DNA of 35,746 nt, from contig JAITFF010000021.1 of assembly GCA_031281515.1 (NCBI GenBank), positions 1 to 35,746 of the forward strand, in the 5' to 3' direction. A program made the position numbers and the translations under genes. The notes beneath the pieces were generated by a model. It was not told the DNA's origin and did no database searches. It was given only the letters and a program-made list of their open reading frames with translations. This document shows, in pieces, positions 677 to 26,611 of this stretch (position 1 is the stretch's first letter; each line of letters starts with the position of its first letter). Origin of the DNA: Holosporales bacterium (GTDB taxonomy: Bacteria > Pseudomonadota > Alphaproteobacteria > RUG11792).

Positions 677-1678
677 GTGACTATGATAGACCCCGCAAAG
701 CGACAAAACAGAAAATTATCTTTTAGTCCTAAATTACACGCAATAATTTTCACGTTAATTATCAATACAATTATTGGTAGTGCAGAATCTTCGCAACAAA
801 CCAATACAATTAAAGGGAGAGACCGTTGGATAGAGTATGAAGTTGCATACCCTGATGATTGGACATCGGCAAGTCAGATTTGTTATTCAGATAAAGGCCT
901 CCCGAAAAAGCTCGATGAATACATCGTAAGCCATGCAGGGATTATCAAGGAATTAAACTTATATGGGATTGACATAGCGAACATACAGGTAATTATGCCG
1001 CAATTACGGATGCTAAGGTTGCAAGTCAATTACATAGGAGACAATGCATTTGAGAAGGCTCCAAATTTAGAAGCCATTATAATAAATCCATCAACAAATT
1101 ATAGAATCACAACAATCAGTCCGCTAGCATTCGCAAATCTGGAAAAGCTACAGAAAATTTACATGGACCCGTCAATCTTAGAATCATACATGAGCTCGCA
1201 AGCCCAATTCGTGCAGCCGTTTAAGGGGTGCAACACATTCTGTAAAATATATACCGATCGCGACGCATTCTACGCAGATGATGAGTCATCGCCAGGGTGC
1301 CTCGGAACGGTTAGTGAAATCAGCGGCTTGAACCTACAAGGGTTACGAGTGTCCATAGGCTCGGAGAGAGCAAACTTGCCTCCACAGAATCCGACTCAGT
1401 CGCCCGGCTTTAATCAATATCAAGCCACGGCGACATATCCCGGCCCAGCACGTGTAAGGGTGGAGGAGGTTCCATCACCGGAGAATATATATGCTGATCC
1501 AGTGAACCCCACTCCTCCTCACCCATCACTTGGCAAGGTGGAGGAGGTTCCAACAGTATCGATACCACTCAAGAGGTCGGTGCCACCTAAAGCACCTCCT
1601 GTAAAGGGAACTGCTGGTAAATCTGTGGCAGTACCAGCTAGGAACCCAGCACCAGTGCCGAGAAGGGCGCGTCGATAA
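677..1678 (+). CDS. secreted/membrane-anchored BspA-type leucine-rich-repeat protein with proline-rich C-terminus
   Basis: 333-aa ORF (GTG 677 or ATG 683). Hydrophobic N-terminal segment LHAIIFTLIINTIIGSA. LRR_5/BspA-like repeats (IGDNAFEKAPNLEAIIINPSTNYRITTISPLAFANLEKLQKIYM). C-terminal third is P-rich with two VEEVP repeats and ENIYADP. Confidence 0.6.
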   Translation: MTMIDPAKRQNRKLSFSPKLHAIIFTLIINTIIGSAESSQQTNTIKGRDRWIEYEVAYPDDWTSASQICYSDKGLPKKLDEYIVSHAGIIKELNLYGIDIANIQVIMPQLRMLRLQVNYIGDNAFEKAPNLEAIIINPSTNYRITTISPLAFANLEKLQKIYMDPSILESYMSSQAQFVQPFKGCNTFCKIYTDRDAFYADDESSPGCLGTVSEISGLNLQGLRVSIGSERANLPPQNPTQSPGFNQYQATATYPGPARVRVEEVPSPENIYADPVNPTPPHPSLGKVEEVPTVSIPLKRSVPPKAPPVKGTAGKSVAVPARNPAPVPRRARR

Positions 1679-3586: not shown

Positions 3587-4295
3587 ATCAGATATCTCGA
3601 AATTAGCGCATACCTACGGAATCCCTTCGAGAGAAACTCTCCTCCTGCTGGCACATGTATTGGCAACCGATTATACATCGCTCTTCTTTTCGAACAAGAT
3701 TCACATTTCGGAGGACGAGTATCGGATATTTTTGGACTGCATAAAAAGACATTCCATTGGAGAACCCATCGCCAAAATTATCGGGAAAAAGGAATTCTAC
3801 GGTTTAGAATTTAAGACGACGAGGGATACCCTCGATCCGCGTCCAGAAACCGAGATGATCATCGATTTATTCCGAGAAAAATATCCCGACGACTCGGCAC
3901 ACCTCGATATTCTGGATCTTGGAGCTGGGACAGGCTGTATCGGGATCACCCTCCTGACACTATACCCGAGGGCCACTTGTACTTTTGTAGATATCGATGA
4001 AAAGGCTCTCGCAGTGGCGAGATATAACGCATCTGCACTCAGACTACTATCTCGCAGCTCTTTCACTCTGAGCGACTGGTTCTCCAACATCGAGAGTCGG
4101 CGGTTCGATGTTATAGTCACCAACCCGCCGTACGTCCGAGATGATTTCGAGTTGAAGGGCGGGGTATTGTTCGATCCACCGGTGGCCCTTTTTGGAGGCC
4201 CAGATGGACAGAGGGATATTCACACAATCCTCAGACAATCTCCCATTTATTTGAAGGAGAATGGGGTCCTGATTATGGAAGGACTGGAATGCTAG
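3573..4295 (+). CDS. prmC: release-factor glutamine N5-methyltransferase (PrmC/HemK family)
   Basis: 240 aa. SAM-binding motif ILDLGAGTGCIGITL and the catalytic NPPY motif (VTNPPYV). Overlaps the truA stop by 14 nt. The N-terminal domain is rather short. Confidence 0.82.
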   Translation: MNLHRSDISKLAHTYGIPSRETLLLLAHVLATDYTSLFFSNKIHISEDEYRIFLDCIKRHSIGEPIAKIIGKKEFYGLEFKTTRDTLDPRPETEMIIDLFREKYPDDSAHLDILDLGAGTGCIGITLLTLYPRATCTFVDIDEKALAVARYNASALRLLSRSSFTLSDWFSNIESRRFDVIVTNPPYVRDDFELKGGVLFDPPVALFGGPDGQRDIHTILRQSPIYLKENGVLIMEGLEC

Positions 4296-4657
4296 CATAG
4301 TCTCCTCACTTAACTCGCAAGCTTCGGTGCAGACGGGACCCTCGAGTTAGAAGCGGCTTTGCATATATCAAAGGAGGAATGCAGATTGTGAGGAAGAGGT
4401 TGTGCCCGGCAGCTATAGCTGGAAAAAAAATCACGACAAGGCGCCTTGGCTAGGGTCGTAAAAAGACTCGAAAGAAAGAACAAACCAGCGAAAGAGACGT
4501 GTGTGCCGTGATGAAGAATTTGCTGCATGAGTTGCTTAGGGTACTGAAAAATGGGCAGCTTTTCGACGACATCGAATCATTCAGTCAGCGATTTTGTCCG
4601 TTTTTTCGTTGACTCGAAACGTAGTATCTTGACAACTGGGGCCTCCCTAGCTCCGCT

Positions 4658-5527
4658 TCATAGCTTTCCTCCCGAGGCCCAACCTCCGGTTAGTTGCCCT
4701 GGCTGGGCTTGCACAACTGGTGCAGGGGCAGGATACTGCGAGCGTGCCCCAACCCAAGGCGGGGGAGGCGTGGAGGCAGCTACCGCAGTCCTCTGTAGCG
4801 GAGACGAGCTATATGGATTACCTGCGGGATATCCGGTAGCTCTTGGTTGTGGGGAAAGGGTAGTACCACCCTGTTGCGAAGGGACGACTCCCCACCCACC
4901 CGTTCCAGGAATGGCTTGTGCTTGCCCTAATGGGGTTCTGGTCGCTACAGTTGTGGGACCTGATTGCGATTGCCACTGAGCTGAAGCAGGGGGTTGAGGA
5001 GCTCCCCACTGATTTCCCGCATATCCTGCCTGAGAATTGAAAGTAGAGAGAGTGGGGTAAACCGGAGCCAGCGGCGCCCTTCCAGTTGCAGCTGGAGGGG
5101 GCACAGCTCCCAGAAATTGGGTCGTAGGTGTTGCCGGAAGGGCGGCTACTGCCCCTCCGGGAGGTAATCCCGGCGGAGGAGGCGCTACTACTCCTGTGTT
5201 GTAGCCCCCGACCTGATTTACGGGGACAGGGGCAGCTGGAGGTAAACCCACTCCATTTGCCTGGTGCATAAGGGCGGCCACTTGAGCTTCAGCGCTGGCC
5301 TGACCGACCTTAATCTGATTCGCCACCGCTGCCCCTTGCTGCTTTAGTTCCCATATCTTTTGAAAGGCTTCTGTCCCTTGTTTGGTGAAGTCTCCTACTG
5401 CTTTGCCTAATTGGCTGAAGTCGAAGGCTTCGGTTACTGGAGAGCTTAGCGCCGAGATGGACACTACCGCCCACGCGGCCTTGCAAACAATTCTCTTGGT
5501 TGCAACAGTCAATTGGATTGAGGCCAT
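4658..5527 (-). CDS. secreted Pro/Gly/Gln/Ala-rich low-complexity protein (unknown function)
   Basis: 289-aa ORF. Signal-like N-terminus (KAAWAVVSISALSSPVTEA), a short helical region, then about 200 aa of P/G/Q/A-rich sequence. The segment is visibly more GC-rich than its flanks. The opposite-strand ORF 4551..4979 looks like a shadow. Confidence 0.6.
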   Translation of the reverse strand: MASIQLTVATKRIVCKAAWAVVSISALSSPVTEAFDFSQLGKAVGDFTKQGTEAFQKIWELKQQGAAVANQIKVGQASAEAQVAALMHQANGVGLPPAAPVPVNQVGGYNTGVVAPPPPGLPPGGAVAALPATPTTQFLGAVPPPAATGRAPLAPVYPTLSTFNSQAGYAGNQWGAPQPPASAQWQSQSGPTTVATRTPLGQAQAIPGTGGWGVVPSQQGGTTLSPQPRATGYPAGNPYSSSPLQRTAVAASTPPPPWVGARSQYPAPAPVVQAQPGQLTGGWASGGKL

Positions 5528-5624
5528 ACTTCCCCCGTTATCGAAATATCGATTTACTTTTGCTCTAAACGCTACTTCGATTGTACGGGGGAGTGGATTA
5601 ATTAATTGTTAACTATATTGTTGA

Positions 5625-5798
5625 TTACTTGTGCTTAACTGCTTTTTGTTCAGAAAAACAGCGGCGTTCCTGGTATTCACTTTGTTTTCCTTTATTAAAG
5701 GCCGACGTCGGGCGGTAATATCCCATAACTCGAGTCCAGACCTCGCATACTGTCCTACCTTCATTCTTAATCTCGATAACTTCTTTCCTATTATCCAT
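5625..5798 (-). CDS. glycyl-radical C-terminal segment of anaerobic RNR (NrdD), encoded as a separate 57-codon ORF in the +1 frame
   Basis: My own translation gives MDNRKEVIEIKNEGRTVCEVWTRVMGYYRPTSAFNKGKQSEYQERRCFSEQKAVKHK*. CEVWTRVMGYYRP...FNKGK..E is the NrdD glycyl-radical signature (RVxGY) plus the last Zn-site Cys. The ATG (5798-5796) overlaps the nrdD stop (ATGGATAA). It falls below the 60-aa cut-off of the ORF track. Confidence 0.75.
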   Translation of the reverse strand: MDNRKEVIEIKNEGRTVCEVWTRVMGYYRPTSAFNKGKQSEYQERRCFSEQKAVKHK

Positions 5799-7830
5799 TG
5801 GCTACCTCCTTCTCTCCAAGTACTCTCGCTGCCAGAAACTGTTGTCTCTTGAGTTCTTCGTCGCACTTCGGGCAGTACCTATGTTCCCCCCGCAAATATC
5901 CGTGTCTCGGACAAATTGAGAACGTCGGAGTTATTGTTATATATGGTATTTTATATTTTGTCAAGACCCGTCGTACCAATTCCTTACAGACCGAATAATC
6001 TGAGACTCGTTCCCCAAGATATAGATGAATAACGGTTCCGCCCGTGTATTTCCTCTGTAATTCCTCCTGGTGATCCAGCGCTTCGAACAAATCTTCTGTA
6101 TATGCGACAGGCAATTGGGACGAATTCGTGTAATACGGCGCCTCTTTCGGACCGGCTTGAATGATATCGGGATATCTCCGGGCGTCCTCTTTCGCGAATC
6201 GATACATACACCCCTCCGCCGGCGTTGCCTCCAGATTGTACAGATGTCCAGTCTCTACCTGGAATTCGACGAGCCTCTCCCTGATGTGATCCAATATTCT
6301 CAGGGCCATTTCTTTTCCATCCGGAGCTGCTATGTCGATTACATCATTCGTAAAGTTCCGAATCATTTCATTTAAGCCATTAACTCCAATCGTTGAGAAG
6401 TGATTCTTGAAGGTTCCGAGGTATCGCTTGGTAAAGGGATACAAGCCGTATTCCATCAGCCTCGCCACTACTTTCCTCTTAATTTCCAGGCTATTCTTTG
6501 CCAGTTTCAGAAGTTCATCTAAATGAACGAGTAGCCCAGCCTCATCCTTTTTATGTAGGTAACCAAGTCTGGCGCAATTTATCGTTACGACTCCGATCGA
6601 ACCGGTCTGTTCAGCAGATCCGAACAGGCTATTCCCTCGTTTCAATAGCTCTCTCAAATCGAGCTGCAGTCTACAGCACATCGAGCGAATCATGTTAGGG
6701 CTGAGGTCAGAGTTTATAAAATTCTGGAAATATGGAATTCCATACTTTGCCGTCATTTCGAATAATATATCCACATTCTTTCCATCCCAGTCAAAATCTT
6801 TGGAGATATTGTAGGTAGGAATTGGAAACGTAAAAACCCGGCCACTTCTGTCTCCTCTGGTCATGACCTCAATGTACGCCTTATTGATCATGTCCATTTC
6901 TTTCTGGAGAGTACCATACGTAAAATCCAGTTCTTCCCCGCCGACTATGGGGTGTTCATCTTTGAGATCCTCCGGGCAAACCCAATCGAACGTAAGATTG
7001 GTAAATGGTGTTTGAGTTCCCCATCGAGTCGGAACATTCAGGTTATAGATGAATGATTGCATCTCCTGATAAACCTGCTTATACGTCAGATTATCGATCC
7101 TGACGAACGGAGCCATATATGTATCGAATGAACTGAAGGCCTGAGCTCCAGCCCATTCGTTTTGCAAGGTCCCCAGAAAATTCACAATCTGAGACAGGGC
7201 GGTCGATAAGTGTCTCGCGGGTGATGCTTCAGCCTTCCCGCTGACTCCATTAAATCCCTCTTGAACGAGCATTCTCAAGGACCAGCCAGCGCAGTACCCG
7301 GAGAGCATATCTAAATCGTGGATATGCATAAATCCATTGATATGCGCTTCCGATATTTTCGATGTATAGATCCTATTTAACCAGTAATTTGCGATGACCT
7401 TCCCAGATAGATTCAGGATGAGTCCACCCAATGAATACCCTAGGTTCGCATTAGCTTTGACTCTCCAATCGAGTTGATCAATGTAATCGTCCACGCTCGA
7501 AACGGCATTGACGAATGACTGGTGCTCGGCCCTTAATTTTGCATGTTGCTCTCTGTAAAGGATGTAAGCCTTCGCCGTCGTTACGTATCCATGCTCGATG
7601 AGGACTCTTTCGACTATATCCTGTATATCCTCGATACTCGGTGCTGATTTGGGATACTTCTTCGCGAGGAGGGATGTCACCTTGAAGGCAAGCATTCTGG
7701 CCTCTCCGACATCAAATTCATTCGTCGCACTCGCCGCTCCGGCAATCGCTTTCGTTATTTTTTCTGTATCAAATGGAGCAAACGTTCCATCTCTCTTAAT
7801 TACAAAATTTAAAATCGCATCATTCGCCAT
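5791..7830 (-). CDS. nrdD: anaerobic ribonucleoside-triphosphate reductase (class III RNR) NrdD, lacking the glycyl-radical tail
   Basis: 679 aa. N-terminal ATP-cone (VIKRDGTFAPFDTEKITKAI), class III core, and C-terminal ITITPTFSICPRHGYLRGEHRYCPKCDEE Zn-ribbon. The ORF stops about 20 codons later, before any RVxGY motif. Confidence 0.9.
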   Translation of the reverse strand: MANDAILNFVIKRDGTFAPFDTEKITKAIAGAASATNEFDVGEARMLAFKVTSLLAKKYPKSAPSIEDIQDIVERVLIEHGYVTTAKAYILYREQHAKLRAEHQSFVNAVSSVDDYIDQLDWRVKANANLGYSLGGLILNLSGKVIANYWLNRIYTSKISEAHINGFMHIHDLDMLSGYCAGWSLRMLVQEGFNGVSGKAEASPARHLSTALSQIVNFLGTLQNEWAGAQAFSSFDTYMAPFVRIDNLTYKQVYQEMQSFIYNLNVPTRWGTQTPFTNLTFDWVCPEDLKDEHPIVGGEELDFTYGTLQKEMDMINKAYIEVMTRGDRSGRVFTFPIPTYNISKDFDWDGKNVDILFEMTAKYGIPYFQNFINSDLSPNMIRSMCCRLQLDLRELLKRGNSLFGSAEQTGSIGVVTINCARLGYLHKKDEAGLLVHLDELLKLAKNSLEIKRKVVARLMEYGLYPFTKRYLGTFKNHFSTIGVNGLNEMIRNFTNDVIDIAAPDGKEMALRILDHIRERLVEFQVETGHLYNLEATPAEGCMYRFAKEDARRYPDIIQAGPKEAPYYTNSSQLPVAYTEDLFEALDHQEELQRKYTGGTVIHLYLGERVSDYSVCKELVRRVLTKYKIPYITITPTFSICPRHGYLRGEHRYCPKCDEELKRQQFLAARVLGEKEVANG

Positions 7831-9400: not shown

Positions 9401-9496
9401 AAAGTATTCCCTAACTAATTGAAGAATGTAAACTTATAATGACGATGGCCTCATGATACCACTTCTTCTATCCGATTGAAACAGAGGAATGTAAAA

Positions 9497-12037
9497 CTAA
9501 TATCTCTTACTCCATCCAATGCCGAGTCCAAGCGAATTCTTCCCGGATAAGTCGGCCGTAATCTTCGTTCTTTTGGTAATATTTTTCTCGACGATGACTT
9601 TCGTTGTGTCTTTCCCAGCTCCCTGATCAATCGATATTTTCATGGTCCCTATGCTCTTACCGATGCTAACTGATGACCTTTCGCCAAAAGTTGCATCATT
9701 GGTTTTTTTGATTTCCAATGCATCTATTCCGAATACCGATTTCAACTTGTCGATGATATCAAATCCCCCGCTGTTCGACAGCTTTCCCATCATCGAAAAC
9801 AGTGTAAATGCCTCTCCCGTAGAAATTTCTGAAGATCTTTTATCGAATAATAAATACGAAAGAACATCGACCTTCGATACGTATGGTTTCGAGAAAAATG
9901 TGACATTCGCTCCGTTTTTATCCTGGGTAAATTTGGCCCCTACCTTTATGTTATCCAGGCTTTTGACAGCCGAAACCCGAACGTTGATGATATCCGGCTG
10001 GGCACTATCAACCCAAATTTCGCCATCTTTTAAAACAAATTTTTTCCCAGAAACTTTTACCTCCCCCTTTGTCATCTTAATTTTAGCGTAATATTTTGGA
10101 TCTGATGCATCTCCGGAGACGGAAATTTCCCCGTCCCAGAGACTATCAATCCCGAATTTAGACACCATTTTTAATCCATTCTTAAAAACAAACTTAATGT
10201 CGATAGGAAACTGTATTGGGGCAGTCTTTGCCTGGCTTATTGGCTTCGATTGTTTCTTGGGATCGATGATTTCCATCGATCTGGATGATCTCGCTATTAG
10301 ACTCGATATATCCATTTTTGTATTTTCTGAGTATAAAGCGCCCGATATTTTGATGGATTTCAGAATATCTCCTTTCGCCGTGATTTTTCCATTTAATTTT
10401 CCGTAGAATTCATTAAATTCAACGATATTAAAATCATGAAAATCGATTAAAATATCAGTGTCCAATCTACCTTTATCGAATACAATTCTACCACTACCAG
10501 TTAACGTTCCATGGGGGAACCCATCATCAGTGGCAAAAATCTTGTCTATCACTATACTGTTGTTTTTGACAATGGCACGAATCATCCCACCTTTGATGAA
10601 GGTATGTGCTACCGGGTTAAAGTACGCTAGATCATTCAGTTCGATGTTTCCAGCAAAGACGGGTTTCCCCAATGTTCCTGCGATTTCTATATCATACCTT
10701 AGGTGACCATCGGCGAACTGTCGCCCGCCCAGACCATAATTTTTCATACCAAACTCCCCTGTAGCTTTCACTTTAATCTTACTTTCCTTACCCGGAATCC
10801 AATTTTCCGTTTCCAGGTTACAGACGATGGTACTCCTCTTCTTCAGGAGATCGTACTGCATCGTGGTAGTAATACCATTCTTGCGCCAATGAGCGACCAC
10901 ATCTACCGTCGGCATTTTTAACTCTCCGAGTTCCCAATCACGTAATTTCGCAGTGAAATTCGCGATCCCATTCGAATAGTTACCGACACCGTCTATGATC
11001 CCCTGTTCGCCTCCAGGTTGACTTCGAATTTCAGATAAAGGAACGCCCTTAATTTCTATCTGACCGATCGATATCGTATCCGAAAACAGATTGACACCCG
11101 ATATATCGATACTCCCACTTTTTATTGGTATTTGTATTTTTGGGATGATATCTCCAACCCTAAATGTAAAGGGTTTAATCGCGATTCTATCGTCAAAAAT
11201 CATTTTATTGATTGAAAATAATTCTTTCGAGGTATCGAAATCCAGATTAACAAAAATCCCGATTTTTTTCGCATAGGCCTTGATATTGATTTCCCCGTTT
11301 TCCATGGATACTTGGCAAGATAGTTCTTGACCATATTCTGGGAGGTTTAGGATACCCCCTACAAAGTCTCCCACATATATGCCATCGAATGAAAACGCTT
11401 CATGAAACTTTGGTTTGTAACTTAGGCTCAGATGCTGATCCCGTAGTCCATACACTGCATTTACCCAGAAATTACCTCCTGTTAGACTGAGAATAACATT
11501 CGAATTCTGAATTTTGACTTGTGCTCCGTAGTTTTTTTCGTTAATCATAAAATTAAGGACTCTGAGGCTCAAGGCATTATCCAATGAAAAGGAAATATTA
11601 CGAACTTTGGAGTTGTTGAGATCCACCTCGTCGATCGAGATCCTTTTCACAATCTTTTGACCAACTATCTTAAAAATCTTGTGGAAATCGGAAAGATCTG
11701 GTCCTTTTGTACTATCCGAAACCACAGTCATTTTACCGATTTTAATATCACGAACGTGAGTCATCTTTTTGCTGAGCAGAATAGAAACGTTTTTTATGTC
11801 GATATTCGGCATCGCGAGGCTTTCCGTGAACTTAATTTGAAGCCGATCAAATGCGAAAGAAAATGGGAAAAACCCGGTTGATCCGGATATAATGATCTCT
11901 ATCCCGTTACCGGCTACTGCATTAATCAATGCGCTCTGAATTCTGGAATTCTGTAACGACAAAACAATCGAGGCAAGGAAAACAGTTATCCAGAAAACAA
12001 TTTTTAATGCTTTCTTAATCAGGAACCGAACGACCAC
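9497..12037 (-). CDS. tamB: translocation and assembly module protein TamB (DUF490 family)
   Basis: Long beta-rich ORF with an N-terminal membrane anchor (FLIKKALKIVFWITVFLASIVLSL) and a DUF490-like C-terminus ending ...LGLGIGWSKRY. The ORF track starts at 12085. I prefer GTG 12037, which is preceded by GGAGG at 6 nt and reduces the overlap with pepF. Confidence 0.75.
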   Translation of the reverse strand: MVVRFLIKKALKIVFWITVFLASIVLSLQNSRIQSALINAVAGNGIEIIISGSTGFFPFSFAFDRLQIKFTESLAMPNIDIKNVSILLSKKMTHVRDIKIGKMTVVSDSTKGPDLSDFHKIFKIVGQKIVKRISIDEVDLNNSKVRNISFSLDNALSLRVLNFMINEKNYGAQVKIQNSNVILSLTGGNFWVNAVYGLRDQHLSLSYKPKFHEAFSFDGIYVGDFVGGILNLPEYGQELSCQVSMENGEINIKAYAKKIGIFVNLDFDTSKELFSINKMIFDDRIAIKPFTFRVGDIIPKIQIPIKSGSIDISGVNLFSDTISIGQIEIKGVPLSEIRSQPGGEQGIIDGVGNYSNGIANFTAKLRDWELGELKMPTVDVVAHWRKNGITTTMQYDLLKKRSTIVCNLETENWIPGKESKIKVKATGEFGMKNYGLGGRQFADGHLRYDIEIAGTLGKPVFAGNIELNDLAYFNPVAHTFIKGGMIRAIVKNNSIVIDKIFATDDGFPHGTLTGSGRIVFDKGRLDTDILIDFHDFNIVEFNEFYGKLNGKITAKGDILKSIKISGALYSENTKMDISSLIARSSRSMEIIDPKKQSKPISQAKTAPIQFPIDIKFVFKNGLKMVSKFGIDSLWDGEISVSGDASDPKYYAKIKMTKGEVKVSGKKFVLKDGEIWVDSAQPDIINVRVSAVKSLDNIKVGAKFTQDKNGANVTFFSKPYVSKVDVLSYLLFDKRSSEISTGEAFTLFSMMGKLSNSGGFDIIDKLKSVFGIDALEIKKTNDATFGERSSVSIGKSIGTMKISIDQGAGKDTTKVIVEKNITKRTKITADLSGKNSLGLGIGWSKRY

Positions 12038-14590: not shown

Positions 14591-15850
14591 GTGTCCAAGC
14601 CGAAAATTACGACCATTACCCTGGGTTGTCGGTTTAACTCCGTTGAATCGGAGATGATAAAAATAATCGCGGGTCAGACCAATGATCCCACGCCCATCGT
14701 CATAATAAATACGTGTGCCGTAACTCATGAAGCGGAACGGCAGTCTAAACAGGCCGTACGGAAGGCCATTCGGGAAAATAAAGGCTCCAAAATTGTTGTG
14801 ACAGGATGTGCCGCAAAAACTGCGAAAGAATATTTCGAAAACCTGGAGGGAATATCAGAGGTCGTCCAAAATGACGGAAAAGAACCAGTGGATATTTCTC
14901 AAATCATCGCGGGCCCGCTCCATCTTTTTGATGGTAGGGCCCGCGCTTTCCTACAAATTCAAAACGGCTGTGATCATTTCTGTACCTATTGCATCGTACC
15001 ATTCACCAGGGGTAGATCCAGGAGCCTTCCCCCAGAGCTCATCTTGAACCAGGTAGAGTATTTCCTCCATCACGGATTTAATGAAATTGTTTTATCCGGA
15101 ATTGATATTGCATCATACGGGAAGGATTTTAACGAAATGGGATACGACCTTTCCGCAATAATCGAGGCAATTCTCGAACGGACTCACATCGCCGGTACTC
15201 GTATTAGGCTATCATCGATCGATCCCGCTGCCGTCAGTCAAAATCTATTGAGTTTATTTACGGGTGAACCGAGGATCATGCCATACTTTCATTTTAGCAT
15301 ACAATCTGGGAGCAACGAGGTCCTGATGGCGATGAGGCGACGTCATTCGAGAGAGGATGTAATCACGATTTGTGAGCATATTCGACGCCAAAGGAAGGAG
15401 GTTGTAATCGGGGGAGATCTTATCGCCGGATTTCCAGTAGAAACGGAACTAATGTTCGAAGAATCGGTTAGGCTGATAGACGATGCCGGCCTGTCACTAA
15501 TTCATGTCTTTCCGTTTTCCTCCAGAAATGGCACAGTTGCCGCACAGATGGTCAAGCTTCCTCCAAACGTAATTCGATTTCGTGCTAGCATTTTGCAGGA
15601 AAAGACTCAGGCCGCAAAAAAGGCACTATTCCAGTCGCTGATTGGGTCGACGACGTCTGGGCTCATCGAAAAAAGTGACGGAGTTGTGGCGTTTGGTAAG
15701 ACCGATTCCTACATCCCCTTCCGATTAGTCGGCCCGTTTCGAGTAGGGGAGGTGGTACATTCCATCTCGATTGCTGGCATATGCGAAGAAAATTCCGAGC
15801 TGATGCTCATTTGTATGCTGGATCCCAATAATCTTTCACTTATCCCATAA
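14591..15850 (+). CDS. mtaB: radical-SAM methylthiotransferase, MtaB-like (MiaB/RimO family)
   Basis: 419 aa with a GTG start. N-terminal UPF0004 Cys pattern (TLGCRFN...NTCAVT...GC), radical-SAM CDHFCTYC, and a C-terminal TRAM-like region. The size and N-terminal motif favour MtaB. Confidence 0.8.
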   Translation: MSKPKITTITLGCRFNSVESEMIKIIAGQTNDPTPIVIINTCAVTHEAERQSKQAVRKAIRENKGSKIVVTGCAAKTAKEYFENLEGISEVVQNDGKEPVDISQIIAGPLHLFDGRARAFLQIQNGCDHFCTYCIVPFTRGRSRSLPPELILNQVEYFLHHGFNEIVLSGIDIASYGKDFNEMGYDLSAIIEAILERTHIAGTRIRLSSIDPAAVSQNLLSLFTGEPRIMPYFHFSIQSGSNEVLMAMRRRHSREDVITICEHIRRQRKEVVIGGDLIAGFPVETELMFEESVRLIDDAGLSLIHVFPFSSRNGTVAAQMVKLPPNVIRFRASILQEKTQAAKKALFQSLIGSTTSGLIEKSDGVVAFGKTDSYIPFRLVGPFRVGEVVHSISIAGICEENSELMLICMLDPNNLSLIP

Positions 15851-17122
15851 AATCTGAGCTGAGATCTTGTCTTTTCCAAAATAGGGAATCAATTTCTCCG
15901 GGATGATTATCGATCCATCTGATTGCTGATAATTCTCTAGGATCGCGATCAGACACCTCCCGACGGCTATTCCAGATCCGTTCAATGTGTGGACGAATTC
16001 ATTTTTCTTCGAAGATATGCATTTAAACCTGGTATTCATACGCCGAGCCTGAAACGTCCCGCACCTAGAACAGCTCGAAATTTCACGATACCTTTTCTGC
16101 CCGGGTAACCAAACCTCCAGATCATATGTCTTTTCAGAGGCGAATCCCATATCTCCAGTCGATAACACGACGGTTCTAAACGGTAAGTCCAATCTTTTTA
16201 AGATCTCCTCAGCGCAGGCCGTCATCCTTTCATGTTCTTCGATGGCCTGGCCCGGCGTCGTGATGCTGACCATCTCAACCTTCCCAAATTGATGCTGTCT
16301 CAGCATTCCGGCCGTATCTCTACCGGCCGCTCCGGCCTCAGATCGAAAACACGGTGTATATGCCGTGTAACGGATTGGAAGCTCATCCTCCCGCAAAAGT
16401 TCATCGCCATGAATATTCGTGAGTGATGCCTCAGACGTTGGAATCAGGTAGGACCCCATCGTCGTCTTAAATACATCTTCCTCGAATTTCGGAAGCTGTC
16501 CGACACCATACATGGCCTTCTGTCCCAAAATGAGTGGAACGTAAACCTCGGTATACCCATGTTCCTTAGTATGAATATCCAGCATGAAACTGGATAGAGA
16601 TCGTTCCATTCTGGCCAGATCCGAGAATAGGAGAACGAACCGAGCCCCAGCTATCTTGACGGCCCTTTCGAAATCCATCATACCGAGCCTAGCGCCGACT
16701 TCATAATGTTCGATCGGTTCGAAATCGAACTCCTTCGGAGTTTTGAAGCGCCTAACTTCAAGGTTACTATCCTCATCTGGACCAACCGGACACTCCCCAG
16801 ATGGAATATTTGGGATAGTCTCAAGGACCCCAATGTATTCACTTTTAGCCTGATTTACGCGCTCCGTCTGTTCTTGTATCTCTTTTTTTAAGGCTGATAC
16901 CTGCCTCGATAATTCGGACCCATCCTTTCCGGCGATCTTACATTTAGCGAATTCAGCGGTAATTGCATTCCTTTTCTCAAGTAATTGTTGCAATTTCGTT
17001 TGCTGCCACCGAAAGTCACGTTCAATTTCCAGGACTTCAGCCTCGATTTCCGGTTTCCCGCGTTTCCGCATGGCATCGTCGAGACTCCCGGGATTCGCTT
17101 TAACGAATGAGATATCAATCAT
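15836..17122 (-). CDS. serS: serine--tRNA ligase
   Basis: 428 aa. N-terminal coiled-coil arm, class II motifs (FRSEAGAAGRDTAGMLRQHQF, GSGIAVGRCLIAILENYQ). Its 3' end overlaps the convergent mtaB by 15 nt. Confidence 0.95.
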   Translation of the reverse strand: MIDISFVKANPGSLDDAMRKRGKPEIEAEVLEIERDFRWQQTKLQQLLEKRNAITAEFAKCKIAGKDGSELSRQVSALKKEIQEQTERVNQAKSEYIGVLETIPNIPSGECPVGPDEDSNLEVRRFKTPKEFDFEPIEHYEVGARLGMMDFERAVKIAGARFVLLFSDLARMERSLSSFMLDIHTKEHGYTEVYVPLILGQKAMYGVGQLPKFEEDVFKTTMGSYLIPTSEASLTNIHGDELLREDELPIRYTAYTPCFRSEAGAAGRDTAGMLRQHQFGKVEMVSITTPGQAIEEHERMTACAEEILKRLDLPFRTVVLSTGDMGFASEKTYDLEVWLPGQKRYREISSCSRCGTFQARRMNTRFKCISSKKNEFVHTLNGSGIAVGRCLIAILENYQQSDGSIIIPEKLIPYFGKDKISAQILWDK

Positions 17123-17933
17123 CAGATTGCACTTTACTTCTCTTCTTCTGGCAGTTTATCACAAAGATCCCGAAGAGAAATAGGGCAATTGACAAAGTTT
17201 GCCCAACCGTCAATGATAACCATCCGAAGTACCGTTCTATTGGCACCTCCTTATAAAATTCTATGACGAATCTAGCCGATGAGTAAATTATGCAAAATAT
17301 CGACGTCAGAACACCGGATCCAATTGTTCTCACTCCCTTCAGTCTGAAAATTATTAGCAAAACCCAGAAATTCAAAAGCCCCTCGAAGACTGATTCGAAA
17401 AGCTGAGTCGGGTATCGTGGCATATGATCCACCAAACTGAAGATTACCGCGAAATCAGCAGAGCAAATTCTTCCGTAAAGCTCCTGATTGACGAAATTAG
17501 CAAGCCGCCCTATACCCAGTCCCAATGAACCAGCAAAACATAAAACATCAGTCAAGGCTCTCCATTCGAAATGATGAGAACGGCAGAAGGAGTAGGTATA
17601 TATCCCGAGGGCCATAACGGATCCGTGGAAGGCTAATCCTCCCTGTCGTAACATGAAAATCTCCATGGGGTTTTTCAGATAATACTCGAAATCGAAGAAC
17701 AGAACGTGTCCCAATCTAGCCCCGATAATCATCCAGATTATCGAAAAAAACATGAATTTGTCGAAGGTATCGGCGGATGGTACCGATACCGGGAAAATAT
17801 TTCTAACCTTCCGGAGGCTCCAGGTGGCCATCCACCATGAAGACAACAGAGAGGCCGCGTAGATTACGCCGTACCAATAGACCTGGATACCGAGGATAGA
17901 AAAGGCGATGGGAGATACATTCCAGATAAACAT
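17115..17933 (-). CDS. lgt: prolipoprotein diacylglyceryl transferase
   Basis: 272 aa polytopic membrane protein with Lgt signatures (IQVYWYGVIYA, GARLGHVLF, GGLAFHG, GRLANFVNQELYGR). Overlaps the serS start by 8 nt. Confidence 0.92.
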   Translation of the reverse strand: MFIWNVSPIAFSILGIQVYWYGVIYAASLLSSWWMATWSLRKVRNIFPVSVPSADTFDKFMFFSIIWMIIGARLGHVLFFDFEYYLKNPMEIFMLRQGGLAFHGSVMALGIYTYSFCRSHHFEWRALTDVLCFAGSLGLGIGRLANFVNQELYGRICSADFAVIFSLVDHMPRYPTQLFESVFEGLLNFWVLLIIFRLKGVRTIGSGVLTSIFCIIYSSARFVIEFYKEVPIERYFGWLSLTVGQTLSIALFLFGIFVINCQKKRSKVQSDD

Positions 17934-18201
17934 ATAGTGCGGTCATAATACCGAAAATCCGCAAAATCCCGACATTGTCCTAAATATCCTCGCTAAATTC
18001 AACGATCAAAAAAAATAGCTCCACCTCTCGAATAAAGATCAGAGTTAACATACCTTCCAGGTGGACGGGAAAGAGGTCTCCATCTCTTTGCTACGATGGG
18101 TGCGTTCAACTCTTGTCTTTTACATGTCATGTTATTTGTCGGAGAATGGTGCGCTTGATTTTCCCAATGGCCTCATCATGGAGGCCAAATGGGAGTGATG
18201 T

Positions 18202-18810
18202 TTACTGCAAGAAGTCCCAATCTTGATTAAATGGATCCGACAAATGAGATAAAGGAAATTCAGTGGTTGTTGAGTCCTGATCTTGTGGAGGATTATGTTG
18301 TGCTGACTGTGGAACCGCTCTTGCGAATTGTGTAGGAACTTGGGCCTGCGGTTCCGTTGATCTAGACGCCATCCATCGGTGCTGGTATGGCCCAATGATA
18401 TGCTCTCTTATATCTCCCACTAATCGGAACATCCCAAACCTTTTCTGCAACATTGTTTGAATTCCTCGTAAAGGAGCACCTCTTTGCATAGCTTGTCTAG
18501 CTGCATTGATCTCTTCGTCTGTCCAGGGAGTCTTATGATCGAGGTCTGGATTCAGGTAGCATTTAAAACGTTCTCGGCATTGTCTAGGATTCCGATTTTC
18601 CATGTCCCTAGCTATTATTGTCCAATCAACTTGAACAGAAGTTGTCTCCTGGTAACGTCTTACTAGTTCCACCAGTCGTGCGTCCTCTTCAGTGGAAAAC
18701 CTGCGGTGGCAAGTATTATCGCTCTGCCCTGCTTCTGTAACTCCAGGCCCACTGATTACTAGCATCGCTAAACAAATTCCGAGGCATAATGGATTTTTCA
18801 ATCTCATCAT
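18202..18810 (-). CDS. signal-peptide-bearing Myb/SANT (R2R3-like) domain protein, eukaryote-like
   Basis: 202 aa. GGAGG lies 5 nt upstream of the ATG. Signal-like MMRLKNPLCLGICLAMLVISGPGVTEA. The Myb repeat RFSTEEDARLVELVRRYQ..VDWTIIARDMENRNPRQCRERFKCYLNPDLDHKTPWTDEE matches the ...QCRERW.N.LNP...K..WT.EED consensus. Confidence 0.7.
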   Translation of the reverse strand: MMRLKNPLCLGICLAMLVISGPGVTEAGQSDNTCHRRFSTEEDARLVELVRRYQETTSVQVDWTIIARDMENRNPRQCRERFKCYLNPDLDHKTPWTDEEINAARQAMQRGAPLRGIQTMLQKRFGMFRLVGDIREHIIGPYQHRWMASRSTEPQAQVPTQFARAVPQSAQHNPPQDQDSTTTEFPLSHLSDPFNQDWDFLQ

Positions 18811-19025
18811 TGATTCCTCCCCAATTAATTCCTCCCAATAGATTCATGCTACGTGCCTGCTGTGGCTGTAGTCAATGGTCAAAAACTTTACCGAGCTTTA
18901 TGGGACAAAAATGTATTTGCCGTTTCCGAAATTAAGATATAAGCTGGAATCAGATCGCCCATCCTCGGGCGGTTCGCCAAATCCAAATATGTGCAATCTT
19001 TTTCTAAAATCATGGAGGAAATTCT

Positions 19026-20213
19026 ATGTTAGCCAATTTTTTCAAAAATTACATAACCGGTAGAGTCGGAGATTCCGGATCTTCATTGGTTTCTTATCGT
19101 ACCGCTCGAACCGATTCGTCGATGGATTATGAAGACATGTCGGATACAGGTTACAAAAAAAATGTCGTCGTTTACCGCTGCGTTCATATGATCGCGAGAA
19201 CAATCGCATCGGTCAACTGGATCATGCGAAAAATGAATGAATCTCACGAAATTGATGAAATTATATATAAGCATGAAATACTAGAGCTAATCGAGCGCCC
19301 AAATTCAAATCAGTATAGAGCGACCTTTATGGAGGCCGCCGTTTCGTATCTCATGCTTTCTGGGAATTGCTATATCATGGCCCTTCGAGATGCCAATGAT
19401 GGTGGCAAACCCATCGAACTACATCTTCTGCGCCCAGACAGAGTCAAAATTATTCCGGGCAAAAGCTCAATCCCAGAGGGGTATGAATATGTCGTCGGAA
19501 ACGATCGGCGTATTTTTGAAGTTGATCCCGAGAATGGGGCATCCGATATCTTACACATAAAACTGTTTAATCCAGTTGATGATTGGTATGGAATGAGCCC
19601 AGTCGAAGCCGTCCTGGGATCGATTAGCCAGCATAATGCTATCGCTCAACAGAACATATCATTCTTACAAAATGGTGGTCGTCCATCTGGAGCATTAATG
19701 TACAACTCTTCACTCGATCATCAAAAGCGAAACGACCTCAAAAATGATTTACGTAGTCTTTATGAAGGAGGAAGAAATGCTGGGAAAATACTACTTTTAG
19801 AAGGGAATTTTGAATGGAAAGAAATGGGGCTCTCTCCAAAGGATCTCGATTTTATATCTGGGAAAGAGCTAGCAGCCAAGGAAATAGCAATGGCCTTTGG
19901 AGTTCCTCCGATTTTGATCGGATTTATGGCGGACGCCACTTTCTCTAACTACAAGGAAGCCAGGTATAATTTCTGGGAGGAAACGATTCTGCCGGTTCTG
20001 AACATCCTATCCGGCGAATTATCTAATTGGTTTCAAATCTTATTCAATACGGATCTCACGTTCTGGTACGACCTCGATTCGATTCCTGCCCTTTCGAAGC
20101 GCAGGGAATCAGAATGGAACAAGATCAGTAGCGCAGAATTCCTGACGATTAACGAGAAAAGGGAGGCTTTCGGATATCCTCCTATCGAAAATTTGGAAAC
20201 TTCCCGCGACTGA
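19026..20213 (+). CDS. phage portal protein, HK97 family (GTA-like, orphan)
   Basis: 395 aa with an SD (GGAGGA) upstream. Layout and motifs typical of the HK97/GTA portal (YRCV..IA....SV.W; LLR PDRV; GMSPVEA; FLQNGGRPSGAL; LEGNFEWKEMGLSPKDLDF; EIAMAFGVPP). Confidence 0.88.
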   Translation: MLANFFKNYITGRVGDSGSSLVSYRTARTDSSMDYEDMSDTGYKKNVVVYRCVHMIARTIASVNWIMRKMNESHEIDEIIYKHEILELIERPNSNQYRATFMEAAVSYLMLSGNCYIMALRDANDGGKPIELHLLRPDRVKIIPGKSSIPEGYEYVVGNDRRIFEVDPENGASDILHIKLFNPVDDWYGMSPVEAVLGSISQHNAIAQQNISFLQNGGRPSGALMYNSSLDHQKRNDLKNDLRSLYEGGRNAGKILLLEGNFEWKEMGLSPKDLDFISGKELAAKEIAMAFGVPPILIGFMADATFSNYKEARYNFWEETILPVLNILSGELSNWFQILFNTDLTFWYDLDSIPALSKRRESEWNKISSAEFLTINEKREAFGYPPIENLETSRD

Positions 20214-22341: not shown

Positions 22342-22707
22342 GAAGACCGGTTTACTACGGTTGTTGGATCTTGTTCGAATGCTCACGTACGTCCAAGTTC
22401 GCTGCACTTCTGTGTTCCGTATATACTTCCTGGGGCTCTGATTCTAAAGGCGCGGAATTATACTTAAATTGCACACCTGAATCTGGGATTAGAAGCTGGA
22501 TACGATCCTCCATATCTTAGAAAGGAGCTAGAGATGGCTTATTAGTAGCTGCCTTGGAGGCTATAGGAGCTCACTTTATTCATTAGGAGATCTCTCTGCC
22601 TCCTCTGCCAAAATCGGAAGAATTTTTACCGTTTTTTAGCTTTTTCTTGGGACCATATCCCTCGCCCGCACGGCTGTGGCTGGCCTTTTTTTTAAATGGG
22701 GAGGATT

Positions 22708-23175
22708 ATGAGTATCTTTCATTACTGTCTTAAAAGTACGTTTGCTTTACTATGTTTCTCTTGCTTCACTCTGATTTCCGAGGCGGTATCCTTGGAAATT
22801 ACAAACAATTTCTCTGAATGTACCGGGCTCCTGGATGAGCTGACGAAGTTTTCTGAGCACGCCTCAGATGGTGACTCTATGACGATATCGAATTGGAATA
22901 TGGAACTCAAGAAAATCAGCGAACACGAGTACCACTTTGGCGATGCTATTCGGATGTATCTTACCGGCCATCCCACCCAAAGTTTGATGGGTCTAACTTC
23001 TATTTTATTCAGGGATGGAGGGTCGGTCAGTTTCGAACGTAATCCGGTCGCTACGGAATTAGTCCTCGTAAATCCGTTCATTGAGAAACTGTGCCAAAAA
23101 GAACCGCTATACCAATGGGTATGCTACCTGGCAACAAAATACATAATTCCAGACGACGAAGACGAGGAAAATTAA
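22708..23175 (+). CDS. small secreted hypothetical protein with acidic C-terminal tail
   Basis: ATG 22708 is preceded by GGGGAGGA. Signal-like MSIFHYCLKSTFALLCFSCFTLISEA. Ends in ...PDDEDEEN. No recognisable domain. Confidence 0.5.
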   Translation: MSIFHYCLKSTFALLCFSCFTLISEAVSLEITNNFSECTGLLDELTKFSEHASDGDSMTISNWNMELKKISEHEYHFGDAIRMYLTGHPTQSLMGLTSILFRDGGSVSFERNPVATELVLVNPFIEKLCQKEPLYQWVCYLATKYIIPDDEDEEN

Positions 23176-25058: not shown

Positions 25059-26345
25059 TCATTTTGCAGAAGGAACCATGACTTTTCTAACCGGGCCTAT
25101 TACAAATACAACTGGCTGTTGCACGGGAGCGCTTCTCCAGCGATTGTATGCCCAGATCCCGAGGAATCCAGCTGTTATCCCAGCCACTCCCAGAGCTCCC
25201 ATATAAAAAGTCTTCCACTTTTCTGTAGTTACCAACTCACTCTCAGTCGCAGTCAGCTGCCCCTTAGTCTCAGTTAACTCACTCTTAGTATCAGACAACT
25301 GCCCCTTAGTCTCAGTTAACTCACTCTCAGCTGCAGTCAGCTTACTCGTCAGTGTAGCTGACGCATTTTCGGCCTTATCTAATAACTCCAATAATTGAAC
25401 GACTCCATCTCCGACACCCTTGGCCTCCGTTGTTACCTCTGCAATAGGATCTTCTTCTAATTTGCCTATTGCACCAACCAATGCCCCAATTCCATCTTTG
25501 AGTGCTTCCACGTGATGTTCCCGTGCATCCACATCTTGACTATCCCGATCTGTGGATAGGAATGCCACTGCTTCGTTCACTACTGCCAAGAAATCCGCCA
25601 GAGGATGCCCGGTTAGTCTAACGGGGGGGGATTCTGTGAAGTCATGTATTGCTGTGTATACTTTCCTCATTTGCGCGTGTGTCCATCCCGCGAACCAACT
25701 CAGGCCTAGAAATGTGCCCGTGACTTCCTCATTGCTATCTGGTTGCTTCCTGGATGGGACCTCCTGGTCCTCATCCAGACTGAGGTAAAACTCGAACCCA
25801 CCCCTCTGAGGGTTCGGATTTATCCTCGTCTGATACGCCTTCAATCCTACCTTTTCCAATTTGTTGGACGAGAGGAGTTCCAACCCTTTCTCTTGGCTGC
25901 ACCACGCGAAGTATTTCGGATACTGGATTGGTGGGCCGTACTCAGTGGACCCTACTTCCGGAAAAAGTTTTAGGGTTCCCGCTGCGGCACTCCACTGTAC
26001 CGACAGTTCAAATTCCCCCAGCATGAATGGAAGAATTTCCGCCGCTAGGACCCCCTGGTCAAAAGTGGTAGTGTCCCATTCTTGCTTCTGCGCCGGATTC
26101 CCGTGCCTCAGAGTGATTGATGTGGGAAGCATGTCCGCTGATTCTTTCCAAACCGGATATGGGATGTGCTGTTCGTACTCTGCCTCTGCTTTCTGGGCTG
26201 TTCCCGTGCTTACGGGCTCTGCCGCAGGGAGAGTCTTGATATTTTCCCAGTCGTCGCCTAGTTTGGGTTCCGCAATTGGGACGCTGGCTGTTACTTGTGT
26301 ACTTAATACCAACATCGAAACTATCTGGATTTGCCTGAATTGCAT
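25059..26345 (-). CDS. secreted/tail-anchored hypothetical protein with coiled-coil tandem repeats
   Basis: I prefer a start at M18 of the 445-aa ORF (MQFRQIQIVSMLVLSTQVTASVP is signal-like). The central region has no recognisable domain. SELTETKGQL repeats are followed by a TM helix FYMGALGVAGITAGFLGIWAY and a short basic tail. Confidence 0.6.
   Translation of the reverse strand: MQFRQIQIVSMLVLSTQVTASVPIAEPKLGDDWENIKTLPAAEPVSTGTAQKAEAEYEQHIPYPVWKESADMLPTSITLRHGNPAQKQEWDTTTFDQGVLAAEILPFMLGEFELSVQWSAAAGTLKLFPEVGSTEYGPPIQYPKYFAWCSQEKGLELLSSNKLEKVGLKAYQTRINPNPQRGGFEFYLSLDEDQEVPSRKQPDSNEEVTGTFLGLSWFAGWTHAQMRKVYTAIHDFTESPPVRLTGHPLADFLAVVNEAVAFLSTDRDSQDVDAREHHVEALKDGIGALVGAIGKLEEDPIAEVTTEAKGVGDGVVQLLELLDKAENASATLTSKLTAAESELTETKGQLSDTKSELTETKGQLTATESELVTTEKWKTFYMGALGVAGITAGFLGIWAYNRWRSAPVQQPVVFVIGPVRKVMVPSAK
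25218..25325. repeat. about 2.5 copies of a 42-bp in-frame tandem repeat inside the 25059..26345 CDS
   Basis: Near-identical DNA units (ttaactcactcttagtatcagacaactgccccttagtctcag / ...) encode SELTETKGQLSDTK / SELTETKGQLTATE / SELVTTEK. Confidence 0.8.
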
Positions 26346-26611
26346 TTTTTTTTGCCACCCCTCGTGTGATCGGATCAACGATAGGGATGGTACCAAACTA
26401 TAATGAAAATTTACTTAAACCCTGCCTCGCTAGTTCCTGACTGCTGGGTATGGCTCTTGTTATTTTGATATCCCATTCACGCGTCCCTCGGGATATCCCG
26501 ATAGAGGACAATTTGACTGGTCCCTTTCGACTGGAATTTTAGGTCTCTAGGACGATTTAGGTTGCTCCCTCCCTCGGGAAATGATAGATTTGAGGATCCG
26601 TTGGCTCAATA

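Follow-up and report, generated by a model that had tools for sequence, protein, structure and literature searches.

How does a Myb transcription factor of eukaryotic type come to be encoded by an uncultured alphaproteobacterium, behind what resembles a bacterial export signal, and what might it do there? The question is raised by a gene on contig JAITFF010000021.1 of a Holosporales bacterium (assembly GCA_031281515.1), all 35,746 nucleotides of which were analysed and are referred to here as the window. The gene is a complete open reading frame (ORF) of 202 amino acids plus stop at 18202..18810 on the minus strand, as judged from the ORF list, the translation and Pfam Myb matches, and the 202 codons and the GGAGG 5 nt before the ATG that the original prediction had claimed can both be read in the sequence. 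It is almost certainly a eukaryote-derived Myb in a bacterial genome. Sequence comparison favours, as the best reading, horizontal acquisition of a host-type transcription factor to which an export signal was added. The small family to which its product belongs has five recognized members so far (the window protein, P0002, P0012, P0017 and P0073), and the larger proposal that the window protein is an exported, host-directed Myb mimic is, taken as a whole, evenly poised.

Myb repeats, predicted fold and C-terminal tail

Profile searches place the body of the protein in the Myb family. Pfam Myb_DNA-bind_6 (PF13921) matches residues 38-101 with an E-value of 6.5e-13 (49.1 bits vs a cut-off of 22.9), and Myb_DNA-binding (PF00249) matches with an E-value of 1.2e-10 (41.7 bits vs 24.4). 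Assignment to a bacterial helix-turn-helix (HTH) family, named beforehand as a possible refutation, was checked for: Pfam returned no family besides Myb ones and no bacterial HTH, and NCBIfam gave zero model matches. The best sequence matches among solved structures are c-Myb R1R2R3 (1h88; E 1.4e-15) and the Mybs of Trichomonas vaginalis (~1e-9). With profile matches far above gathering scores, the eukaryote-type domain proposed in the original prediction is borne out.

The two repeats differ in how closely they follow the Myb pattern. Repeat 1 (residues 36-88; 18547..18705, minus strand), delimited by the Pfam matches at residues 36-85 and 38-101 and by alignment with c-Myb R2, is of R2 type, with all three regular positions aromatic (F38/W63/F82) and a RQCRERF recognition helix. 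Repeat 2 (residues 94-150; 18361..18531, minus strand) is a diverged R3-type repeat, in which only the first regular position is aromatic (W96/L114/I138), R135/E136 stand for c-Myb K182/N183, and five residues are inserted ahead of helix 3. The replacement of Trp1 and Trp3 of repeat 1 by Phe, also anticipated, corresponds to F38 and F82 in the alignment. Phe occupies the position of c-Myb W95 in every parabasalid-type small Myb aligned, and F38 is therefore inherited and not a sign of decay.

An AlphaFold model from the single sequence was uninformative (predicted local distance difference test score, pLDDT, 42), and the model used was made with a 110-sequence alignment. This has pLDDT >90 across residues 40-140 and comprises two three-helix bundles, with helices predicted at residues 40-56, 63-68 and 75-86 in repeat 1 and at 98-109, 114-125 and 131-150 in repeat 2. 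The best Foldseek match is the T. vaginalis Myb2-DNA structure 3osf (E 2e-4, 116 columns, 32% identity), with both repeats aligned, and the model superposes on DNA-bound c-Myb R2R3 (1h89) with a root-mean-square deviation of 2.4 Å over 103 columns. The earlier description of the second repeat as degenerate thus holds for its sequence, which has diverged and keeps only W96 of the three Trp, but not for its fold; repeat 2 is predicted to be structurally intact, at pLDDT >90.

Behind the repeats, a low-complexity linker rich in Pro, Gln, Ser and Thr (residues 151-191; 18238..18360, minus strand), defined by composition and with low pLDDT and no secondary structure, leads to the acidic/aromatic end DPFNQDWDFLQ (residues 192-202; 18205..18237, minus strand), which is shared with homologues. 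The tail as a whole (residues 151-202) is 50% P/Q/S/T with a net charge of -6, in agreement with the composition first reported for it, and its ending is found in eukaryotic relatives as well. In 52 of the 110 aligned homologues, T. vaginalis included, the last 15 residues contain at least three acidic, at least two aromatic and at most one basic residue; aromatic residues make up 19% of the tail vs 10% of the body. The Holosporales family members likewise end in an acidic/aromatic stretch. Because leaderless relatives carry the same C-terminal end, a whole transcription factor, not the domain alone, was transferred. The end is probably a co-activator-binding motif.

The residues through which Mybs read DNA are less well kept. 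Alignment with c-Myb pairs W95 with F38, W115 with W63, W134 with F82, K128 with R76, E132 with E80 and N136 with C84 in repeat 1, and W147 with W96, W166 with L114, W185 with I138, K182 with R135 and N183 with E136 in repeat 2. Among the c-Myb base-contact residues (K128, E132, N136, K182 and N183), only E132 is identical in the window protein (E80), and the Asn183 equivalent is lost in four of the five family members; c-Myb C130, R131, E132 and R133 are kept in the window protein. The Myb region of the window protein has a net charge of +1 and a pI of 7.8, the second lowest of 53 domains compared, with +4 to +12 in most relatives and +4 to +8 in the other family members. Binding of the window protein to the classical YAACNG Myb site appears doubtful from these residues, and membership of the Myb fold family is unaffected by their loss.

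The same residues give rise to the main rival explanation, namely that a mimic of host origin is indeed exported but has no DNA-binding activity; it would instead make SANT-like protein contacts, or serve as a decoy soaking up a co-activator or import factor, in the host cytoplasm, in the nucleus or at the bacterial surface. Such a protein could dispense with the base contacts that have been lost (N136 to Cys, N183 to Glu, Asn183 being gone in 4/5 members), with two of the Trp in repeat 2 and with an uninterrupted approach to its helix 3, could tolerate a net charge of +1 in the Myb region, and might still be expected to retain the C-terminal end, as the Holosporales members do. This explanation is nevertheless unlikely, given that the R2-type recognition helix RQCRER is intact (R76 for K128, E80 for E132), that the remaining members of the family carry a positive net charge (+4 to +8) and that the predicted fold superposes on DNA-bound Mybs.

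Leader, bacterial family and 5' cassette

The reading of the gene as an exported Myb begins with its leader. Residues 1-27 (MMRLKNPLCLGICLAMLVISGPGVTEA; 18730..18810, minus strand) resemble a Sec-type signal peptide with candidate cleavage between TEA and GQ, as judged by hydrophobicity, charge and the -3/-1 heuristic only: the n-region has a charge of +2, 20 uncharged residues are present, the peak Kyte-Doolittle value is 3.0, and the TEA-GQ junction obeys the -3/-1 rule. By the same heuristic, all bacterial copies have peak hydrophobicities of 2.0-3.3 over 10 residues, 16-30 uncharged residues and -3/-1-compliant sites. The peak is <1.2 in T. vaginalis, Tritrichomonas and most of the metagenomic leaderless relatives, with an unnamed metagenomic sequence (P0005) at 2.1. 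On these measures the leader fits the Sec-type (signal peptidase I) pattern, and eukaryotic homologues lack it. All five family members share the motif M-x-LK-x-PL-C-L-x-x-C-L..L, and a protein search with the leader alone against 5.8 billion sequences returned nothing at E <=10. A lipoprotein reading, tempting given lgt next door, was rejected on the lipobox pattern L-[ASTVI]-[GAS]-C. The conserved C13 is preceded by L-G-I in the window protein and by L-V-I, L-V-V, L-I-L or L-I-V in homologues, so that position -1 is never G/A/S; just seven uncharged residues lie ahead of it, and the hydrophobic stretch runs on past the Cys.

The bases preceding the ATG are GGGGAGGAATCA, with GGAGG at -5 nt and a second GGAGGA 8 nt further up, and the upstream sequence on the coding strand reads ...GGGAGGAATTAATTGGGGAGGAATCA-ATG-ATG. 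The public gene call (P0001, 187 aa) begins at M16; to judge from the homologous sequences this start is wrong, because the stretch upstream of M16 is kept as protein in them. The call bears on a second rival, by which the protein stays in the cytoplasm and regulates genes of the bacterium itself, its N-terminus either being no export signal or starting at M16. Tri-helical HTH domains do regulate bacterial genes, and P0001 does start at M16. However, the strong GGAGG lies 5 nt before M1 and not before M16, the family conserves residues 2-17 at the protein level, and the +2 charge on the N-side of the leader would put the remainder outside the cytoplasm even if the leader stayed uncleaved. The acidic/aromatic end, moreover, has no known role in bacterial transcription, and the protein matches no bacterial family. 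A cytoplasmic regulator is accordingly improbable, and the preferred reading remains that of an exported protein.

The leader is also what sets the bacterial family apart. Four of its five members can be placed, and all four are on bacterial contigs. The closest homologue of the window protein, P0002, is 48% identical to it and bears the annotation 'SANT/Myb domain-containing protein [Holosporales bacterium]'; exact look-ups returned no contig for P0002 or for the 187-aa product called in the window. An exhaustive HMMER search of 1.84 billion cluster representatives gave 3659 Myb matches, of which only P0012, P0017 and P0073 match from the leader onward; those of the 3659 that were examined are either Mybs of eukaryotic type or bacterial copies with a leader. 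Species-representative genomes, scanned with the Myb alignment and two narrow patterns (MRLKNPLC and QCRER[FY]K[CN]), gave no match, a weak sign that the family is rare. Common to the five are the leader motif, the R2-type repeat, the same diverged second repeat, the Pro-rich linker and the acidic/aromatic end.

Several copies occur in tandem. P0012 and P0073 lie side by side on JGI contig L081, adjoining pyrH-tsf-rpsB. P0017, annotated 'Holosporales bacterium', is the last of four same-strand Myb genes in a row (4495-5229, 5381-6046, 6191-6784 and 6932-7498) between kdsB/mltG and uvrB on contig L113, which was recovered from two assemblies, and each of the four carries its own, different hydrophobic leader. 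The public call missed the gene at 5381-6046, choosing an ORF on the opposite strand. Leader-bearing Mybs are also found in a Puniceicoccales metagenome-assembled genome (MAG), as the adjacent genes P0068 and P0014, and a nine-repeat leader-bearing Myb (P0008) is encoded on a contig (L115) with sigma-54 and two-component regulator genes. The same contig encodes, at 10485-12029, a 514-aa protein with faint RING/IBR zinc-finger matches that could be another eukaryote-like (E3-ligase-type) gene.

Conservation extends beyond the protein into a 5' cassette, recognized when 100 nt either side of the start codon were aligned for four family genes (window 18811-18875, minus strand; L081 875-941 and 2362-2428; L113 6866-6931). 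Its distal part is the promoter-like TTGACT-N18-TAGCAT(GAA) at 18843..18875 (minus strand), picked up independently by a consensus scan (at 18875-18846) and kept in both copies on L081 and in L113; the family pattern is TTGACY-N16-19-TAGNAT(R)AA. Promoter matches by consensus scan are no more numerous in the region than expected by chance, and this site is conserved in both position and sequence. Its proximal part is a double Shine-Dalgarno element, GGAGGA-N8-GGGGAGGA (18815..18835, minus strand), with the proximal GGAGG 5 nt before the ATG; it is present upstream of all four genes and has the family pattern GGAGGA-N7-8-GGGGAGGA. In the 1.64 Mb formed by the window and the loci, the promoter and double Shine-Dalgarno patterns occur at these sites alone.

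The leader codons share this nucleotide-level conservation. Third-position identity is 62-100% over leader codons 1-17 and 26-45% over the Myb region, where third positions are saturated in the pairs compared; between the L081 paralogues, all 16 of 16 third positions in the leader are identical vs 32% in the Myb region. Some process acts on the nucleotides themselves in this stretch, be it regulatory constraint or gene conversion. RNAalifold predicts a hairpin in 4/4 genes in which the proximal GAGG and the AUG pair with leader codons 7-10 (UCCAUUAUGCCUC). A hairpin that hides the ribosome-binding site is not claimed: nearly all of its pairs are invariant, covariation is almost absent, and the folding energy in the window is ordinary when set against shuffled sequences (z = +0.77).

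Origin of the gene and its genomic setting

The search for a donor points towards anaerobic protists. Among the top 115 matches of a family-profile search, the only named eukaryotes are T. vaginalis (P0159, E 1.8e-17; P0230) and one low-placed alga, and a match from Tritrichomonas musculus is 51% identical. The RQCR[ED]R motif and Phe at the W95 position are common to the window protein and parabasalid Mybs. Metagenome scanning recovered many leaderless relatives of 145-240 aa on long contigs of 33-35% GC, which also encode CDC45, a Tweety channel, a DDB1/CPSF-type propeller, a protein kinase and a fusion of iron hydrogenase with flavodoxin/FAD domains. The fusion, used here as a marker of an anaerobic protist source, is represented by a 1149-aa protein with iron hydrogenase, flavodoxin and FAD-binding domains at 3818-7267 of a eukaryote-like contig of 35% GC (L083). 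These eukaryotic genes and the hydrogenase fusion trace the leaderless Mybs to an anaerobic eukaryote whose genes are densely packed and poor in introns, a source consistent with Parabasalia.

A neighbour-joining tree was computed from 109 columns with 100 bootstraps and without labelled sequences from plants, fungi, ciliates, amoebozoans or oxymonads. It groups the window protein with P0002 and P0012 at 98%, with P0017 added at 52%. The family lies within the radiation formed by small Mybs of parabasalid type, with animal c-Myb outside (bootstrap 95 and 89). A donor of parabasalid type is thus the best available reading of the sequences. Horizontal acquisition of a host-type Myb, as the original prediction had it, remains the best reading, supported by the parabasalid affinity of the nearest named relatives, the bacterial neighbours and the absence of the leader from eukaryotic homologues. 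The amoeba or ciliate donor suggested with it finds no such backing; the data point to parabasalids instead, in a tree without labelled ciliate or amoebozoan sequences.

The identity of the carrier was approached with lgt as probe. The nearest genomes are those of uncultured Holosporales, Gsp477_bin11 being closest (lgt 78%, serS 80% identity), followed by Gx481_bin27, Cd354_bin23 and several rumen 'RUG' MAGs (lgt identity 59-65%). Gsp477, Gx481 and Cd354 are metagenomes from the hindguts of Kalotermitidae, a family of lower termites, sampled from Glyptotermes spp. and Cryptotermes dudleyi (PMC11257099 supplement). An uncharacterised Paracaedibacteraceae clade has been described from animal guts, termites above all, and Holosporales are described as obligately tied to eukaryotic hosts (PMC11909080). 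By these gene sequences, the carrier of the Myb gene is an uncultured Holosporales of a clade found in lower-termite guts and rumen.

The Myb gene resides in a genuine bacterial chromosome segment. It is separated by 215 bp (18811-19025) from a phage-type portal gene (19026-20213, plus strand; Phage_portal, E 8.7e-80) and by 268 bp (17934-18201) from lgt (17115-17933, minus strand), which is followed by serS (15836-17122, minus strand). Related loci keep lgt-serS, but nothing upstream of lgt there has a counterpart in the window, and no Myb gene is present; in all nine loci compared, the 10 kb upstream of lgt contain neither a portal gene nor one for RNase E. The Myb gene is thus at a synteny breakpoint, and insertion into a conserved lgt-portal core is not demonstrable because the relatives offer no empty site. 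In the closest relative (L001), a glmU-like ORF and a small Cys-rich ORF of 126 aa (MPVVVCGAMCQCSFGLAPSSL...; 9452-9832) lie upstream of lgt. The latter may resemble PAAR-like/DUF4280 proteins, which are linked to type VI secretion. The portal gene stands alone between the Myb gene and that for RNase E/G, with no terminase, protease or capsid gene adjoining, and may be a leftover of a gene-transfer agent or prophage.

In overall GC content (0.45) the Myb gene equals the window. Its third-position GC content (GC3) of 0.37 is the lowest of 20 window genes (others 0.43-0.56), a mild hint of foreign ancestry and nothing more. Low GC3, the synteny breakpoint, the diverged second repeat and the low net charge would also suit a third rival, a decaying and functionless remnant of a gene transferred from the host. 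Such a remnant would hardly be found as an intact ORF both here and in at least four homologues on other contigs, with motifs kept over the full length, a confidently predicted fold, a conserved promoter, ribosome-binding site and leader, and tandem expansion; this explanation is very improbable. An assembly chimera or host contamination, conceivable where protist-rich gut metagenomes hold many similar eukaryotic Mybs, has next to no probability, with bacterial genes 268 and 215 bp away within a 35.7 kb contig, a bacterial ribosome-binding site, window-like GC, homologues inside three other bacterial contigs (one from two assemblies) and eukaryotic relatives that are leaderless.

The remaining window genes show a bacterium with possible further ties to a host. 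Other neighbours include genes for a pepF-like peptidase, a MiaB-type radical SAM enzyme, RNase E/G, comM, TamB, class I LysRS (LysK) and SmpB. An anaerobic ribonucleotide reductase, NrdD (5791-7830, minus strand; E 2e-175), fits an anoxic gut or protist habitat. No second Myb domain or similar leader was found among the other window ORFs. A 333-aa ORF (677-1678, plus strand) has a weak, below-threshold match to BspA-type leucine-rich repeats (LRR_5; E 1.6e-4), a class typical of Trichomonas and listed among the eukaryote-like genes of termite-protist endosymbionts, and could be a further gene for interaction with the host. Filamentous-haemagglutinin repeats (E 1.4e-12) occur in a 789-aa ORF (30227-32596, minus strand) that is accompanied by a 751-aa ORF without family match (32603-34858, minus strand); the two could encode the cargo of a two-partner secretion system or a large protein of the cell surface, and have a bearing on the way this bacterium displays its proteins. 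Five ORFs of 159-630 aa lack a significant Pfam match (22696-23175, 25059-26396, 27154-29046, 29237-30166 and 4658-5527); one has faint coiled-coil-type matches only, and all five could encode surface proteins or effectors particular to the lineage. The edge of the window (35128-35586, plus strand) holds part of an IS1595-family transposase, with an HTH at its N-terminus.

Proposed export and delivery, and relation to known systems

On the preferred reading of an exported, host-directed Myb mimic, the gene would have come, after its capture, under a bacterial promoter and a strong double ribosome-binding site, and would have been extended by a hydrophobic leader of Sec type. The precursor would be translated from M1/M2 and exported by Sec, with the leader cut near the TEA-GQ junction. 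The mature protein of ~20.6 kDa would then leave by some outer-membrane route into the cytoplasm of the protist host, and its size would permit passive entry into the nucleus. There it might mimic or compete with members of the host's large Myb family, through its Myb repeats, its acidic/aromatic end, or both. The steps differ in probability as judged from the sequence: Sec export is likely, delivery to the host has about equal chances of being right or wrong, and action in the host nucleus is possible, somewhat short of an even chance.

Several observations weigh against this scheme. No basic nuclear-localisation signal is recognisable in the protein, and the leader could be an uncleaved membrane anchor. 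In the two-membrane Holosporales, Sec reaches the periplasm only, and no outer-membrane route was identified in the window. The secretion system held typical of Holosporales is type VI (PMC11909080). Proteins carried by type VI systems are normally without Sec leaders. With C84 for N136, E136 for N183 and two of three repeat-2 Trp gone, the window copy is also the least basic member of its family (net +1). The deeper nodes of the neighbour-joining tree, which rests on 109 columns, are unsupported, and a parabasalid donor is not demonstrated.

The closest precedent comes from a different phylum. Three Myb_DNA-binding genes were listed in RsTa-C01, a Clostridia endosymbiont of the protist Trichonympha agilis, two of them closest to T. 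agilis and one with a lipoprotein signal peptide; signal peptides were present on 20 of 42 eukaryote-like genes (Takahashi et al., ISME J 2023; PMC10579323, Table S10). Shared with the present case are Myb genes in a termite-protist-associated bacterium, parabasalid nearest relatives, a signal peptide, adjacent copies (RsTa-C01 0774/0775) and presumed secretion. Direct Sec secretion is assumed there (PMC10579323), whereas the bacterium considered here is a two-membrane alphaproteobacterium; the RsTa-C01 signal is of lipoprotein type, whereas the window leader fails the lipobox. The RsTa-C01 genes are tabulated only.

Among proteins of solved structure, the T. vaginalis factors tvMyb1/2/3 (2k9n, 3osf and 3zqc) are close, with two repeats near the N-terminus, a length of 160-250 aa, first-position Phe, the RQCR[ED]R helix and an acidic/aromatic end, tvMyb2 being the best structural match. 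Unlike the window protein, with its R135/E136, two lost Trp and insertion, they are leaderless and have a canonical R3 with KN and three Trp. Vertebrate c-Myb R2R3 (1h88, 1h89, 1gv2) gives the best solved-structure E-value (1.4e-15) and has C130/R131/E132/R133 in common with the window protein, but is large and has three repeats; its K128/N136/K182/N183 are R/C/R/E in the window protein, and animal Mybs fall outside the family clade.

In concept, the proposed protein resembles bacterial nucleomodulins and the Sec-dependent effectors of 'Candidatus Liberibacter asiaticus', which intracellular bacteria make and which work in the nucleus or cytoplasm of the host. Liberibacter is likewise an alphaproteobacterium, and its effectors are described as carrying ordinary Sec signal peptides (PMC7819608); delivery of the window protein is a hypothesis. 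In a nucleomodulin review, Myb appears solely on the side of host targets (MYB30) and never as a domain of an effector. A limited search of the nucleomodulin literature, mostly at the level of titles and abstracts, found no Myb-domain bacterial effector, and a search for Myb together with Holosporales found no report among the papers covered.

Myb genes of termite-protist symbionts had thus already been listed, and the present ones are from a new bacterial order. Added here are a defined family, its tandem arrays, the divergence of its second repeat and a conserved cassette for expression and export, which could serve as a search key for more exported proteins in uncultured genomes. Eukaryote-like proteins with signal peptides are a familiar theme, and the finding should interest specialists more than astonish them. 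By general account, transcription control in trichomonad-type protists depends strongly on a much expanded Myb family. It may tentatively be proposed, at rather less than an even chance, that these genes form the first bacterial Myb-type nucleomodulin family: a factor captured by termite-gut Holosporales from the dominant regulator family of a parabasalid host, driven by the cassette, duplicated into arrays and sent to the host nucleus to rewire transcription, its diverged second repeat conferring new target specificity and its acidic/aromatic end recruiting host co-activators. The family is small and well defined, the mature protein is ~175 aa long, and structures and binding sites of the tvMybs are known, which makes the idea testable in T. 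vaginalis. If true, it would offer a direct handle on how intracellular bacteria reprogram their protist hosts.

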